Source: Patescibacteria group bacterium (lineage in GTDB: Bacteria; Patescibacteriota; Minisyncoccia; Phycocordibacterales; Phycocordibacteraceae). From it: a DNA stretch of 64,000 nt. The stretch covers positions 13,357 through 77,356 of the forward strand of contig JAGWIS010000001.1 in the NCBI GenBank assembly GCA_028866135.1. Direction: 5' to 3'. Made by a program: the position numbers and the translations under genes. How positions within the stretch are numbered: the stretch's first letter is position 1; each line of letters opens with the position of its first letter. Under the pieces are notes generated by a model. The model had not been told where the DNA came from. It made no database searches and saw only the letters and a list, made by a program, of their open reading frames with translations. Positions 1 to 3,773 of the stretch are shown one piece after another.

Positions 1-1133
1 CGGCGTGCGACGGCTTCGGTCGAGTTGTAATCGGGAACGAGTTTCTCATCGAGTGAAACGAGCGCGCGATTCGTCTCAAGCGGCTGCCCATTCAAAATCT
101 TGCGGACGCAATACGCGACGGCCGCGCCATTCACGAGCGCCGCGCCGCCGAGCTGCGGCCAGGAAACGATGGTCTTCCCCATCTCCATGAGTGATTGCTG
201 CATGCGCTCGGTCACATTCTCCGGTCCGACTAATTTCGTAATCATCTTACCGATACCAAATTTATCAAGTTTTGAAAGCGTCTCGTACGAAACCTCGCCC
301 ATGCGTCCGTGGAAAAATTCCGGCTGCGGGTTGCTGTCTTGGCGTTCAATGTCGACGACGGCATTATCGCCATTATCCGCGGCCATGACGACCGCGATGC
401 GGCGCTTTTTTGCCTGCTCGCGTATGAGATATTTAACCGAAAGGTTATCGAGTTCATCAATAACGATATCGAGATCGGCGCAAAAGTCGTCGATGTTCTC
501 CGGCGTGAGTCCTTCTGAATGCAGCTCGAGTTCCGCGTACGGATTTATCTCATAGATCGTACGCGCAGCCATTTCGACCTTCAGCATGCCGAGGCGATCG
601 GCACCGGCGAGAACGCGGTTCGTATTCGAAAGAGCGAGATGGTCCATATCAGCAAGCTTCATCCGTCTGCCACCTCCACCAAGCGCGATAGCAAACGCAA
701 CCGATGAGCCGACCGAGAGCCCGCCGATGCCAATTTTTGCGTTATAAAATTTCTCCTGTTCCTCCCTTGTTATGAGATTCTGATTTCGCGCCGTGCGGAC
801 AAGATGATATTCGTCTTCAGGTAAGATATGCGCCGCCAGATAGCGCCAAGGAAAATAGGCCCAGCGACCGTGCTCGGAAAGCGACCTCTCGGAGGCAAGC
901 GAGTGGAAATATTCTTGAAATGCCTCCTCAAAACCAGGGGCGTAAACACGCGAGGGGTTGTTAACACCAAAAAGTTCGCGCTGCTGTTCCTCGTAATCGT
1001 CCGAAACCTGCCTGATCGCTCCTTCTTTCACGAGAGCCTCAAAACGAATTCGCTCGTCGCTTTGCGACAGGTCAAAAATCGTCGGCGTCGACGCTACTTT
1101 CTCGGCGCGAAGCTCTTCAAGAGTGTTTTCCAT
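1..1133 (-). CDS. ThiF/MoeB/HesA-family E1-like adenylyltransferase with an N-terminal extension of about 130 aa. It is partial: the C-terminus lies beyond the window start.
   Basis: The minus frame is open from ATG 1133-1131 (MENTLEELRAEK...) to the window edge, which is why the complete-ORF track misses it. It has the Rossmann motif KIGIGGLSVGSSVAFAIALGGG followed by DMDHLALSNTNR, typical of ThiF/E1. Confidence 0.6.
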   Translation of the reverse strand, partial: MENTLEELRAEKVASTPTIFDLSQSDERIRFEALVKEGAIRQVSDDYEEQQRELFGVNNPSRVYAPGFEEAFQEYFHSLASERSLSEHGRWAYFPWRYLAAHILPEDEYHLVRTARNQNLITREEQEKFYNAKIGIGGLSVGSSVAFAIALGGGGRRMKLADMDHLALSNTNRVLAGADRLGMLKVEMAARTIYEINPYAELELHSEGLTPENIDDFCADLDIVIDELDNLSVKYLIREQAKKRRIAVVMAADNGDNAVVDIERQDSNPQPEFFHGRMGEVSYETLSKLDKFGIGKMITKLVGPENVTERMQQSLMEMGKTIVSWPQLGGAALVNGAAVAYCVRKILNGQPLETNRALVSLDEKLVPDYNSTEAVAR

Positions 1134-1155
1134 ACCCCCTATGCTAACACGCCGG

Positions 1156-2712
1156 CTACTGACGGATGACCCACTTTTGCTTAATCCCCGGATGGAAATA
1201 TTTGGGGTGTTCGTGCGGCCAGAAAACGACACGGGGCACGACACGCTCACGCATATTGATATAGTTGTTCAAATATTCACCGCTTGATGCCGAAAGGCTC
1301 TTCACAATACTCTCGACGAGGGCCGCGCGTATCGGTTCGCCGTCTTTCACACCGTGCTGGAGCTCGATGTTAATCTCGAGGTACTCATTGTGCTTCGCGT
1401 CATTCTCGGTCGTCATGGTGAAGCGGCCTGTGATGAACTTTTCGAGCGCCGGATTCTGGAGGCCAATCTTCACGTGTTCGGGGAAGATGATCGCGCCGTA
1501 GAGCTTCGTCGAGAGATCCGCGCGCTCGTAGAGATACACGAACGGAAGCTCCATGACCGTATCGTTGATGCTCGCGCGCTTTATCTCGGCGGCAAGATCG
1601 ATGCCGACCTCCTTGCACTTCCGTTCGGCGTCGGCATAGGAGAAGACGCCGCCCTGATCGCCGATGTCGTAGCGGATGAGCGGCAGCACGGCTCCGCCGG
1701 TCGCGTAGACTTCGCCGCCCTTCCCCGCTTCGAATGCAGTGAAGTCGGGGATGAATTGCGCGAGAGTGGGCAAGCGGTGCGCTTCGCTGAACAGCTTCCG
1801 GTAGAGCGCTTCGTGCTTCAGAGCGAGGCGGCGGAGCAGGATCGAAAGCGGCGTCTCGGTCGCCATGGTGCCGAGTTCCGCGCTGCCGTAGATGTTCATG
1901 ACGCTGCGATACGGATCTTTCATGCCCGTCTTCTGCATCAGGTATTCGCGGAAATGCTCGGAGAACGCCTCGGCGGCGCAGATGACGCGCATGTTCCAAT
2001 GCTTCCAATTGATGCCGTGCTCGGGCGCGTCGTCGATGAGGTCTTTTACGAAGGGCGGGTAGCCGCAGAGGATGACTTGCTCGTATGCGGGGCCGATGTG
2101 CGTGAGCGCCTCGAATATTTCCTTTTTGTTCACGCCGGGAGTGATAATCGAAAGCGGCCATCCGCTCTCCGAAATGCGGCTGAATGCCTCATACGTGAGG
2201 ACGCCCCCGATCCAGACCCCCATGCCGAACGCGACGACGACCAGCGTCGGCTTCGACTTGTCGAGACCGCTGCGCTCTATGAAAAGCCGGTGGAATACCA
2301 TCGCAGCATCATGGACGTCGTTGGTGCGCGGAATGTAGAAAGGCTGCCCGGTCGAACCGGATGTCGCGGTGAGGACGAGCGGCTCGTTCGCAAGGGCGCC
2401 GGCCACGCAGAGCTTGTCCCAGGGATGTACCCGCAGATAATTCGCCTTGCTGACGGCCGGGATACGGTCGATGCTCTTCGCGGTCCGGATGGAAGAAGGA
2501 TCAACTCCGAGACGCTCGAGAAAATGCCGGTACGCCGGAACGTTCTTGCAGGCTTCCTTGAAGCGTTTGAAAATCGTCGAAAGAGTGGCGCGCGACCAGT
2601 CCGCGCTCTCGCTGATGCGCAGCTTCGCGATGAAAGAGGGAGACACTGCGAAAGACCGAGGCCGTGCAGGGGTCTTTTTATGTACGCGGGCCGACGAGCG
2701 GCTAGGGCGCAT
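1156..2712 (-). CDS. PaaK-like adenylate-forming enzyme (phenylacetate-CoA ligase / F390 synthetase family).
   Basis: 518-aa ORF with the AMP-binding motif TSGSTGQPFYIP and PaaK/CapK-like overall composition. The N-terminal 40 aa are Arg-rich, so the true start may be internal or non-ATG. Confidence 0.6.
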   Translation of the reverse strand: MRPSRSSARVHKKTPARPRSFAVSPSFIAKLRISESADWSRATLSTIFKRFKEACKNVPAYRHFLERLGVDPSSIRTAKSIDRIPAVSKANYLRVHPWDKLCVAGALANEPLVLTATSGSTGQPFYIPRTNDVHDAAMVFHRLFIERSGLDKSKPTLVVVAFGMGVWIGGVLTYEAFSRISESGWPLSIITPGVNKKEIFEALTHIGPAYEQVILCGYPPFVKDLIDDAPEHGINWKHWNMRVICAAEAFSEHFREYLMQKTGMKDPYRSVMNIYGSAELGTMATETPLSILLRRLALKHEALYRKLFSEAHRLPTLAQFIPDFTAFEAGKGGEVYATGGAVLPLIRYDIGDQGGVFSYADAERKCKEVGIDLAAEIKRASINDTVMELPFVYLYERADLSTKLYGAIIFPEHVKIGLQNPALEKFITGRFTMTTENDAKHNEYLEINIELQHGVKDGEPIRAALVESIVKSLSASSGEYLNNYINMRERVVPRVVFWPHEHPKYFHPGIKQKWVIRQ

Positions 2713-2738
2713 GATGGGCGCACCCTACCACACAAGCT

Positions 2739-3773
2739 CTACTTTGTGAATAGACGCCTGAGGATATCGAGGACGGCCACTGAATCGGCCGGGGAGGGCA
2801 CGGCGATGCGTAGTGTGTCTTTCAGGAGCGTTTTCGCCTCTGGGAAACGGCTCATCGGCTCACCGAGCGCGACGCGTATGCCCTGCGTGAGGAGCGCGTC
2901 GCGGACGCGCTCAGCACCCGAGGCGCGCATCAGGACGAAATTCGTTTCGGAAGGATACGCTGCAACGCCGGGGAGCGACTGTAGTTTTTTTATAAAATTT
3001 CCGCGCTCCTTAATGACGATCTCGCGCCGCGCTTTCACTTTGTCTGTGCGTGCGAGGAGCGCGAGCGCGGAGAGAACGCTCGCGTGCGCGACCGGCCACG
3101 GCAGCATCAGCTTCTCCACTTTCTTAATAATGTCCGGGGCGGCGATCGCGTAGCCGACACGCGCGCCCGAGAGGCCGAACGCTTTCGAGAGCGTCCGGGT
3201 GATGATCAGATTCGGGAGCTCGGCGAGGCGCGGCAAAAACGTCGCCCCGGAAGAGAATTCAAAATATGCTTCATCGGAGACGACGAGCGTCTTGCTTCCC
3301 CGGGCGGCTGCGGCGAGCTCGGAAATATCCTGCGCCGACAAAGGGCAGCCGAGAGGGTTATTGGGATGGCAGAGAAAAAGCACTTTCGCCGAACCGCTCT
3401 CAAGCGCCTTCACGGTTTTCGCAAGCGGAAACGCGAACCGGCCATCCCGCTCCTCATACGGGATGGCGATCGTCTTTGCGCCGACGCGGTCGAGAATGGA
3501 TTCGTAACCGTAGAAGGTCGGCACGGGCAAGAGCGCTTCCCCGCCCCCGCCCGCGTACGCACGGGCGATATGCTCTATCGCCGCATCGGAGCCGGGAGCG
3601 ACGAGCACTTGATCCTTTCCGACGCCCGCGTACGCCGCAAGCGCACTCTTCAGTTCTCCGTAATCCGGATAGGTCGAGAATTCGCGCGCGCCGCAGGCGC
3701 GCGCCGCTTCCACCAGCTCGTCATCAAGGAGCCAGTAGCTTTCATTCCGATCCAGCGGCATCATATCGCCCAC
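2739..3773 (-). CDS. PLP-dependent class I/II aminotransferase (histidinol-phosphate aminotransferase / CobD family).
   Basis: 344 aa with the PLP-lysine context TLSKAFGLSGARVGY and a HisC-like layout. It is first in a minus-strand operon with the PaaK-like and ThiF-like genes. Confidence 0.6.
   Translation of the reverse strand: MGDMMPLDRNESYWLLDDELVEAARACGAREFSTYPDYGELKSALAAYAGVGKDQVLVAPGSDAAIEHIARAYAGGGGEALLPVPTFYGYESILDRVGAKTIAIPYEERDGRFAFPLAKTVKALESGSAKVLFLCHPNNPLGCPLSAQDISELAAAARGSKTLVVSDEAYFEFSSGATFLPRLAELPNLIITRTLSKAFGLSGARVGYAIAAPDIIKKVEKLMLPWPVAHASVLSALALLARTDKVKARREIVIKERGNFIKKLQSLPGVAAYPSETNFVLMRASGAERVRDALLTQGIRVALGEPMSRFPEAKTLLKDTLRIAVPSPADSVAVLDILRRLFTK

Follow-up and report, generated by a model that had tools for sequence, protein, structure and literature searches.

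A Patescibacteria gene module that pairs a PaaK-fold ligase with a TrzS-type E1-like enzyme and may build an oxazolone-type molecule

We analyzed a 64,000-nucleotide (nt) stretch of contig JAGWIS010000001.1 (positions 13,357 to 77,356, forward strand) from the Patescibacteria group bacterium assembly GCA_028866135.1, here called the window. At its left edge, positions 1 to 3773, lie three minus-strand genes that encode a HisC-family pyridoxal phosphate (PLP) aminotransferase, a PaaK-fold adenylate-forming ligase of the ANL superfamily, and an E1-like enzyme of the ThiF fold (Table 1). An initial annotation, made from the letters of the DNA and a list of open reading frames (ORFs), had described them as co-directional, tightly spaced genes of these families, and the ORFs and our family scans agree with that description. 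We propose that what is seen here is one part of a module for small-molecule biosynthesis, conserved in the candidate phyla radiation (CPR)/Patescibacteria, and that this module would build a small oxazolone-type molecule from an amino acid; taken as a whole, we hold this explanation with slightly better than even confidence.

Three genes at the window edge and their conserved neighborhood

The gap between the aminotransferase and ligase genes is 26 nt, or 92 nt if the ligase begins at its internal GTG, and that between the ligase and E1-like genes is 22 nt. A scan of positions 1 to 4600 for sigma-70 promoters and intrinsic terminators, which was uninformative overall, gave no convincing terminator between the three genes. 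The public record of the ligase (P0001) is 100% identical to the window protein, takes the GTG at 2646 as its start, has 496 amino acids (aa), and carries the name 'phenylacetate--CoA ligase family protein'. The E1-like gene runs off the window start, as had been noted, by 14 residues; its full-length record (P0154), identical over the visible part, has 391 aa and the C-terminus ...RKKVSEDFAKGFGL. It is therefore a standalone enzyme that stops after the E1 part and has no nitroreductase-superfamily oxidase (FDO) fused to it.

Table 1. Positions of the module genes, their motifs, and other features of the window and of related loci (L numbers)
Feature	Position	Strand	Remarks
HisC-family PLP aminotransferase	2739..3773	-	344 aa, GTG start; accessory module member in the window sublineage
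SKAFG motif, residues 196-200	3174..3188	-	coordinates verified by translation
PaaK-fold (ANL superfamily) adenylate-forming ligase	1156..2712	-	518 aa (ATG 2712) or 496 aa (GTG 2646)
TSGSTGQP phosphate-binding loop	2341..2364	-	ANL core motif; coordinates verified
C-terminal GIKQKW tail of ligase	1171..1188	-	K489 (496-aa numbering), candidate adenylation lysine
E1-like (ThiF-fold) enzyme, Rv1355c/TrzS type	1..1133	-	377 of 391 aa visible; proposed ATP-dependent cyclase
N-terminal domain, residues 1-116	786..1133	-	the 'extension'
ThiF-type adenylation domain, residues 117-252	378..785	-	Pfam ThiF
Gly loop GIGGLSVGS	705-731	-	aligns with TcdA; coordinates verified
DMD..SNTNR	615-650	-	aligns with TcdA; coordinates verified
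DELDN motif, residues 226-230	444..458	-	conserved ThiF/MoeB Asp motif
HisKA_7TM kinase, L004	13738-15327		45 loci in all
HisKA_7TM kinase, L003	13883-14812
HisKA_7TM kinase, L005	15182-16777
HisKA_7TM kinase, L007	15812-17422
DoxX-family membrane protein, L004	7420-7968	-	182 aa
DoxX-family membrane protein, L001	8998-9522	-	also in L011, L013, L016
Peptidase within module, L001	12783-14603
Peptidase within module, L002	12914-14212	-
Peptidase within module, L007	9627-10586	-
CYTH	3899-4441		low-GC island
GDSL hydrolase	4559-5173		low-GC island
LeuRS-like protein	5177-6607	+	476 aa; low-GC island
NUDIX	6643-7152	-	low-GC island
AstE/AspA-like deacylase	7070-7897	-	low-GC island
APH-family kinase	7909-8904	-	low-GC island
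NUDIX homolog, L001	20155-20436		71% identity
ftsX, ftsE, prfB	21191-23265
tRNA-Met	35663-35735
ApbE homolog	35952..36700		32 kb from module
Group I intron	59127-59375	-	Rfam RF00028
Apparent tRNA gene holding the intron	59080-59398	-

We compared the cluster with 85 non-redundant loci at 42 to 86% identity to the window ligase; a metagenome scan supplied 80 of these, and a scan of genomes together with exact look-ups supplied the other 5. The E1-like gene lies directly downstream of the ligase gene on the same strand in 54 of the 62 loci that can be judged, and somewhere in the locus in 60 of them; at least 550 metagenome loci carry the module. An unbiased clustering of the ORFs of the 85 loci returned PaaK-like proteins in 85, E1-like proteins in 74, FDO in 53, a histidine kinase in 45, an aminotransferase in 20, and a 348-aa protein in 19. 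The remaining clusters were regulators, housekeeping genes, and two sets of unannotated membrane proteins; TrmB was found at 14 of the loci and a receiver-only response regulator at 9, and DnaJ/DnaK also belonged to this remainder. No paa, thi, or moa cluster emerged among the 85 loci, in line with the initial view that these are not standard thiamine, molybdopterin, or phenylacetate genes, and the conservation of the neighborhood that it proposed to check was borne out by the ligase-E1 pairing.

Two further genes belong to this conserved setting. Among the 40 loci with at least 6 kb of downstream sequence, FDO is present in 28 and a HisKA_7TM histidine kinase, with a seven-transmembrane (7TM) sensor region, in 30; FDO was found in all 8 loci at 65% identity or above. 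The kinase (529 to 536 aa in L004, L005, and L007) follows FDO on the same strand in most related loci, and in 21 of 48 loci it lies immediately 3' of FDO. The spacing of the core genes is close, from overlap to separations of 22 to 150 nt. In L003, L004, and L005 the E1-like and FDO genes overlap by 4 nt and ligase, E1-like, and FDO genes overlap or abut, while 1 to 5 other genes stand between E1-like and FDO genes in L001, L002, and L007. What lies to the left of position 1 in the window was judged by proxy from relatives at 84 to 86% identity. The initial annotation had supposed that a ThiS/MoaD-like partner might be encoded there, but the close relatives L004, L010, and L011 have in that place a nitroreductase-superfamily FDO, directly after the E1-like gene, and then the 7TM histidine kinase.

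Other genes recur less regularly around the module. A DoxX-family membrane protein is encoded 0.5 to 3 kb upstream of it, on the opposite strand, in the closest relatives, and no homolog was found in the window. Peptidases of three families (S9 prolyl-oligopeptidase-like, M16 insulinase-like, and M19 dipeptidase) are inserted within the module in three lineages; these insertions are sporadic, with no peptidase cluster common to four or more loci, and they may bear on amino acid supply.

The position upstream of the ligase gene is filled by one of two enzymes. Among the 65 loci with sufficient upstream sequence, the aminotransferase is directly upstream of the ligase in 15 and the 348-aa protein in 14, with both together in none. 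The 348-aa protein is an ELFV-family amino acid dehydrogenase whose nearest kin are leucine and tryptophan dehydrogenases (PDB E values of about 1e-70), and it reaches 281 bits on the NCBIfam ScyB model, under the family cutoff. The aminotransferase matches Pfam Aminotran_1_2 (E=6e-48) and scores 234.2 bits on the hisC model TIGR01141, below the equivalog cutoff of 276.55; its closest solved structures are Escherichia coli HisC (E=1.5e-38) and the putative phenylalanine aminotransferase 4r2n. Its SKAFG motif holds what we presume, from general knowledge of the HisC family, to be the PLP-binding lysine. Its neighbors are the ligase-E1 module and not his genes, so the context of histidine biosynthesis expected of a HisC is missing. 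The aminotransferase and the dehydrogenase are unrelated enzymes that achieve the same net conversion, between hydrophobic or aromatic amino acids and the corresponding 2-oxo acids. That the two alternate in one slot argues that the window aminotransferase genuinely belongs to the pathway, as an accessory member, and is no housekeeping HisC, as do its below-cutoff HisC score, its presence in 7 of 10 close relatives, and its movement together with the ligase-E1 pair relative to L004.

Natural fusions also tie the activities together. Among the 150 best family representatives we found four fusion types, all in Parcubacteria/Patescibacteria metagenome-assembled genomes (MAGs): ligase-ThiF (P0259, 863 aa), ThiF-ligase (P0367, 880 aa), dehydrogenase-ligase (P0265, 847 aa, four accessions), and dehydrogenase-ligase-ThiF (P0351, 1242 aa, two accessions). 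The three with an E1 part include its N-terminal domain wholly or mostly. These fusions are strong evidence that the dehydrogenase, ligase, and E1-like activities belong to one pathway, and they suggest that the ligase product is passed directly to the E1-like enzyme. Together with the adjacency kept across the 85 loci and the alternation of aminotransferase and dehydrogenase in one slot, the fusions support the conclusion that all three window genes form one functional unit. The same observations make plausible the initial suggestion that the cluster activates and ligates an amino acid-derived carboxylate.

Family relationships of the two adenylating enzymes

The window E1-like protein contains a Pfam ThiF domain (E=6e-23, residues 117 to 252), and it matches positions 6 to 340 of the 722-position NCBIfam model NF005901 ('Rv1355c family') with 321 bits, where the cutoff is 476. 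On any ThiF, MoeB, MoeZ, TcdA, or SAMP-E1 model it reaches at most 76 bits (ThiF TIGR02356, 67.7 bits against a cutoff of 275.25; MoeB TIGR02355, 51.6 against 376.55). On PRK14851, the profile of another ThiF-nitroreductase family, the CPR E1-like proteins reach 67 to 71 bits. The initial assignment to a ThiF/MoeB-type E1 thus gives way to the Rv1355c family, by far the best match. The E1-like proteins of L001 and L002 score 324 to 330 bits on the Rv1355c profile, and in these relatives FDO is a separate gene of 353 to 362 aa that aligns to profile positions 376 to 720 with 178 to 185 bits and also matches the Acg family. As a rough two-gene sum, E1-like protein and separate FDO of L001 and L002 reach about 508 bits together, against the cutoff of 476. 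By profile alignment, then, the E1-like protein is the N-terminal half of the Rv1355c/TrzS architecture, and since the FDO half is encoded apart from it, this architecture appears split into two genes in the CPR relatives. Of the solved structures, Acg is the nearest homolog of FDO, and the same has been reported for TrzS.

The N-terminal extension of the E1-like protein, first put at about 130 aa and thought unusual, is real, but it comprises about 116 aa, and all homologs and the fusion proteins have it conserved, so it is no oddity of this copy. A profile search of the extension, as had been advised, placed it on positions 6 to about 110 of the Rv1355c profile, and it is predicted to form a compact fold, with a predicted local distance difference test (pLDDT) score of 89 to 97. 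The adenylation domain that follows has intact motifs: the Gly loop, the DMD..SNTNR segment, and the DELDN motif (D226, E227, and D229) are invariant in 30 E1-like homologs. In Mycobacterium smegmatis TrzS, the D217A variant abolishes cyclization (PMC12856293), and the DELDN Asp probably corresponds to this essential Asp217, as judged from the position of the motif rather than by aligning the protein directly to TrzS. Among solved structures, the nearest by sequence is TcdA (E=6e-11); the top structural match of the E1-like model is AclA (9egb), which we did not use in the argument. These relationships support grouping the E1-like protein, by sequence, with the small-molecule cyclases TrzS and TcdA and not with protein activators.

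The window ligase is distant from the enzymes for which it is named. It scores 50.3 bits on the PaaK model TIGR02155 (cutoff 646.3), 50.6 bits on the haloarchaeal PaaK model (cutoff 700), and 16 bits, below cutoff, on Pfam AMP-binding; a profile search of the PDB gave a distant match to PaaK (E=1.6e-9), in the N-terminal domain alone. Its AlphaFold2 model (pLDDT 87.9) nevertheless places it clearly, at the level of predicted structure, in the PaaK clade of ANL enzymes, with the PaaK-type two-domain fold and the ANL phosphate loop present. The structural neighbors of the model are BT_0428 (25.3), ClxA (23.9), 2-hydroxyisobutyryl-CoA ligase (22.6), the 'PaaK-like ligase' 6siw (22.6), and EhpF (18.2), with classical ANL enzymes at 15 or less; 6siw is apparently a NatL2 entry. 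Counted by representatives, the ligase family is large (1760 at E<=1e-3, 503 at E<=1e-30). Among genomes, the nearest relatives of the window ligase are from an unclassified Patescibacteria MAG (84% identity), Kaiserbacteria (77%), and Saccharibacteria (60%), and named homologs belong to Kaiserbacteria, Azambacteria, Parcubacteria, Paceibacterota, and Minisyncoccia.

The catalytic elements of the ligase are conserved. In the 496-aa numbering, T95, S96, G97, S98, T99, G100, and P102 of the phosphate-binding loop are invariant in 37 ligase homologs, as are K489 and W492 of the C-terminal GIKQKW tail, a segment of low confidence in the monomer model. In ClxA and NatL2 the equivalent C-terminal lysine comes from a partner subunit, and these PaaK-fold enzymes couple an acyl-adenylate straight to an amine or phenol without coenzyme A (CoA) (PMC12519233). 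By analogy, K489 may parallel that partner-subunit lysine. The CoA-independent coupling by ClxA and NatL2 means that amide formation has precedent in the PaaK fold.

Genomic setting of the module

The module differs in base composition from the DNA beside it, with a GC content of 0.58 for positions 1 to 3773 and 0.42 for 3774 to 9000. The low-GC island itself spans 3899 to 8904, at 0.37 to 0.47 in surroundings of about 0.6, and encodes six proteins (Table 1). That this island begins right past the aminotransferase gene, as first described, is correct; the functional link to the module that had been left open did not hold up, as relatives lack the island there. We considered the island as a part of the module and rejected this, since its genes are sporadic and lie at other positions in related loci, as with the NUDIX homolog of L001. 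One island protein has a partial match to archaeal-type leucyl-tRNA synthetase (LeuRS), with 133 bits on PRK12300 (cutoff 677) in two stretches, the best over residues 3 to 160; since a true LeuRS is about twice as long, this protein may be a paralog of a class I synthetase that has been truncated or repurposed.

Comparison of window positions 21191 to 25079 and 35663 to 41221 with L004 bears on the placement of the module. In L004 and L016 an ApbE gene is directly upstream of the aminotransferase gene. In the window, the ApbE homolog lies next to a tRNA-Met gene, and the module is found beyond ftsX, ftsE, and prfB from it. With these housekeeping genes as the reference, the aminotransferase-ligase-E1 block thus stands elsewhere in the window than in L004, and it moves as one. 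Either the module itself or its surrounding region has been relocated, and the island and the operon are neighbors by rearrangement and functionally unlinked.

Elsewhere in the window we noted a group I intron (56 bits, above the Rfam gathering score) within an apparent tRNA gene. ARAGORN with long introns allowed gives a tRNA of 72 nt once 247 nt of intron are removed from the anticodon loop at position 36; with its default settings the program does not find this tRNA. Which anticodon results, and hence which tRNA this is, depends on where exactly the splice junction lies. The T-arm beside the intron was also considered as the 3' end of a tmRNA, which was rejected because in-silico splicing gave no tmRNA.

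Proposed pathway, alternatives, and known systems

The full module would consist of an aminotransferase or dehydrogenase for aromatic or hydrophobic amino acids, the PaaK-fold ligase, the TrzS-type cyclase, FDO, and usually the 7TM sensor kinase; for the window, FDO and kinase would lie beyond position 1. From the gene order, families, motifs, folds, co-occurrence, and fusions described above we infer the substrates, the formation of an amide and not a thioester, the product, and any link to the kinase. The aminotransferase, or elsewhere the dehydrogenase, would supply one building block by interconverting an amino acid, aromatic or branched-chain, with the corresponding 2-oxo acid. The ligase would then adenylate a carboxylic acid and transfer the acyl group straight to the amino group of an amino acid, giving an N-acyl amino acid without CoA and taking the place of the acyl-CoA-dependent N-acyltransferases OxzA, TyzA, and TrzA. 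The E1-like enzyme would adenylate the alpha-carboxylate of this N-acyl amino acid, and attack by the amide oxygen would close a 5(4H)-oxazolone, as with TrzS, TyzB, and OxzB, after which FDO would desaturate the bond from C-alpha to C-beta to give a conjugated oxazolone.

This scheme has weak points. The fold predicted for the ligase does not by itself distinguish amide ligases from CoA ligases, the window shows neither FDO nor the kinase, and about 30% of the loci are without a detectable FDO. The first of these bears on a rival in which the oxazolone-type pathway is the same and the PaaK-fold enzyme is an ordinary acyl-CoA ligase that feeds an unlinked N-acyltransferase elsewhere in the genome. 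We consider this rather unlikely. The ORF clustering found no conserved acyltransferase in the 85 loci, although no search with the TyzA, TrzA, and OxzA sequences was made, and a lone GNAT gene in L002 lies on the opposite strand. The existence of both ligase-E1 and E1-ligase fusions suggests that the ligase product is itself the substrate of the E1-like enzyme, with no enzyme in between, and CPR genomes are generally poor in CoA and fatty acid metabolism. In another alternative the ligase would couple an amino acid to a second one or to a 2-oxo acid, the E1-like enzyme would act through the C-terminal carboxylate to close a ring other than an N-acyl oxazolone, as in diketopiperazines, and FDO would act like the cyclic-dipeptide oxidase AlbA. 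That the nitroreductase superfamily of FDO includes AlbA (bioRxiv 10.1101/2020.06.11.147165) speaks for it. So do the dehydrogenase fused to the N-terminus of the ligase, by which an amino acid-derived acid may be adenylated, and the module-inserted peptidases. However, the E1-like protein and FDO fit the TrzS profile far better than those of other families, and the substrates of TrzS are N-acyl amino acids; we also know of no PaaK-fold enzyme that adenylates alpha-amino acids. We therefore regard this alternative, ring closure and oxidation included, as improbable.

Readings in which the E1-like enzyme acts on a protein or peptide fare worse. Sulfur-carrier, cofactor, or peptide-tag chemistry had been put forward initially, in which a peptide tag, a sulfur carrier, or a ubiquitin-like protein, encoded outside the window, would have its C-terminus activated by the E1-like enzyme. 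This is largely refuted and very improbable: there is no small ORF ending in Gly-Gly (ThiS/MoaD-like) in 7 loci, no small ORF conserved in the 85 loci, no rhodanese, JAB, or E2-like neighbor in their ORF clustering, and no CxxC motif in 30 E1-like sequences, in which the sole invariant Cys is in a C-terminal helix, while the ThiF and MoeB equivalog models give 52 to 68 bits where their cutoffs are 275 to 376. Just as hard to credit is a ribosomally synthesized and posttranslationally modified peptide pathway of the MccB (microcin C) or PaaA (pantocin A) type, in which the N-terminal domain of the E1-like protein would hold a precursor peptide. No ORF of 18 to 69 aa was found to be common to even 3 loci, the close packing of the core genes leaves no room for a precursor, and the N-terminal domain fits the profile of TrzS, which works on a small molecule. 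Finally, the public name of the ligase would be explained if the aminotransferase and a true PaaK degraded phenylalanine via phenylacetate, with the E1-like protein an unrelated neighbor. This is refuted by context, and we give it next to no weight: the ligase reaches 50 bits where the PaaK equivalog requires 646, none of the 85 loci has paa genes, and the ligase is nearly always paired, and sometimes fused, with the E1-like protein.

Since a 7TM sensor kinase so often accompanies the module, its product may be a signal, and the authors of the mycobacterial oxazolone work likened oxazolones to acyl-homoserine lactones (AHLs). We suggest, tentatively and with much more doubt than confidence, that the product may be a diffusible oxazolone-type (or N-acyl amino acid-derived) signal sensed by the adjacent kinase. 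If so, the frequent kinase neighbor would make a candidate ligand-receptor pair, specific to CPR as synthase and receptor, for cell-cell or symbiont-host communication in a setting where CPR-host communication is poorly understood, and the PaaK-fold ligase, fused to the E1-like cyclase or paired with it, would be a new CoA-independent way of signal synthesis in organisms that have next to no metabolism of lipids or CoA.

That ThiF-FDO enzymes form oxazolones was discovered between 2021 and 2025, in Proteobacteria and Actinomycetota. The module described here occurs in many CPR/Patescibacteria lineages despite their tiny genomes and very little biosynthetic capacity. If the proposed pathway is correct, oxazolone-type biosynthesis reaches a very different part of the bacterial tree, with a nonhomologous swap of its first enzyme, a PaaK-fold ligase for a GNAT-like acyltransferase, that would be of interest for amide-bond biocatalysis. 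The annotations 'phenylacetate--CoA ligase', 'molybdopterin/thiamine biosynthesis adenylyltransferase', and 'histidinol-phosphate aminotransferase' are probably misleading for the genes of the module.

The closest known counterpart is the TrzAS system (Rv1356c/Rv1355c), in which Rv1355c (TrzS), a ThiF-like ATP-dependent cyclase fused to a nitroreductase-superfamily FDO, converts the N-acyl tryptophan made by the acyltransferase TrzA to N-acyl tryptazolones in Mycobacterium tuberculosis and M. smegmatis (PMC12856293). Oxazolones do not survive acid or methanol (PMC12856293). The CPR E1-like proteins resemble TrzS in their scores of 321 to 330 bits on the Rv1355c profile, which include the N-terminal 100 or so aa that other ThiF-nitroreductase families lack, and in the conserved Asp motif, and the FDO of the relatives fits the C-terminal half of that profile. 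In contrast to TrzS, cyclase and FDO are separate CPR genes, at times with other genes between them; the ORF clustering of the 85 loci showed no TrzA-type N-acyltransferase, and the PaaK-fold ligase stands upstream instead; an aminotransferase or dehydrogenase and a 7TM kinase often adjoin; and the hosts are CPR and not Actinomycetota. The M. tuberculosis proteins TyzA, TyzC, and TyzB (Rv2336, Rv2338c, and Rv2337c), which make N-acyl tyrazolones (PMC10404671), and OxzAB of Pseudoalteromonas rubra, which makes tyrazolones (bioRxiv 10.1101/2020.06.11.147165), share with the CPR module a ThiF-like ATP-dependent cyclase and a nitroreductase-superfamily FDO for an amino acid-derived small molecule, and in Tyz, as in CPR, cyclase and oxidase are separate proteins. 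Their first enzyme, however, is an acyl-CoA-dependent acyltransferase with an AHL-synthase/FeeM-like fold, where CPR have an ANL-superfamily ligase. No conserved N-acyltransferase is nearby, and we propose that the PaaK-fold ligase substitutes for the N-acyltransferase, dependent on acyl-CoA, that OxzAB, TyzACB, and TrzAS use.

The CPR ligase shares with PaaK its fold and the core motifs of its N-terminal domain, but its C-terminal domain cannot be aligned by sequence; as CoA-independent amide/ester ligases of benzoxazole biosynthesis, ClxA and NatL2 are a precedent (PMC12519233, PMC9400959). With TcdA, ThiF, and MoeB the E1-like protein has in common an adenylation domain that carries the SN-x-NR motif as well as the Gly loop and Asp motifs, and TcdA, the tRNA t6A cyclodehydratase, also acts on a small carboxylate; the CPR protein differs in its extra N-terminal domain and divergent C-terminal region, with neither a CxxC zinc site nor a carrier partner found. 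Published similarity-network work on the TrzS cluster discussed an acyltransferase and FDO alone as neighbors, and the literature that we searched gave no account of the CPR module or of a PaaK-type partner for ThiF-FDO oxazolone enzymes. Thus, the cyclase/oxidase core is homologous to known systems, and what differs is the acylating enzyme, the amino acid/2-oxo acid enzyme, the split and fused architectures, the association with a kinase, and the host group.

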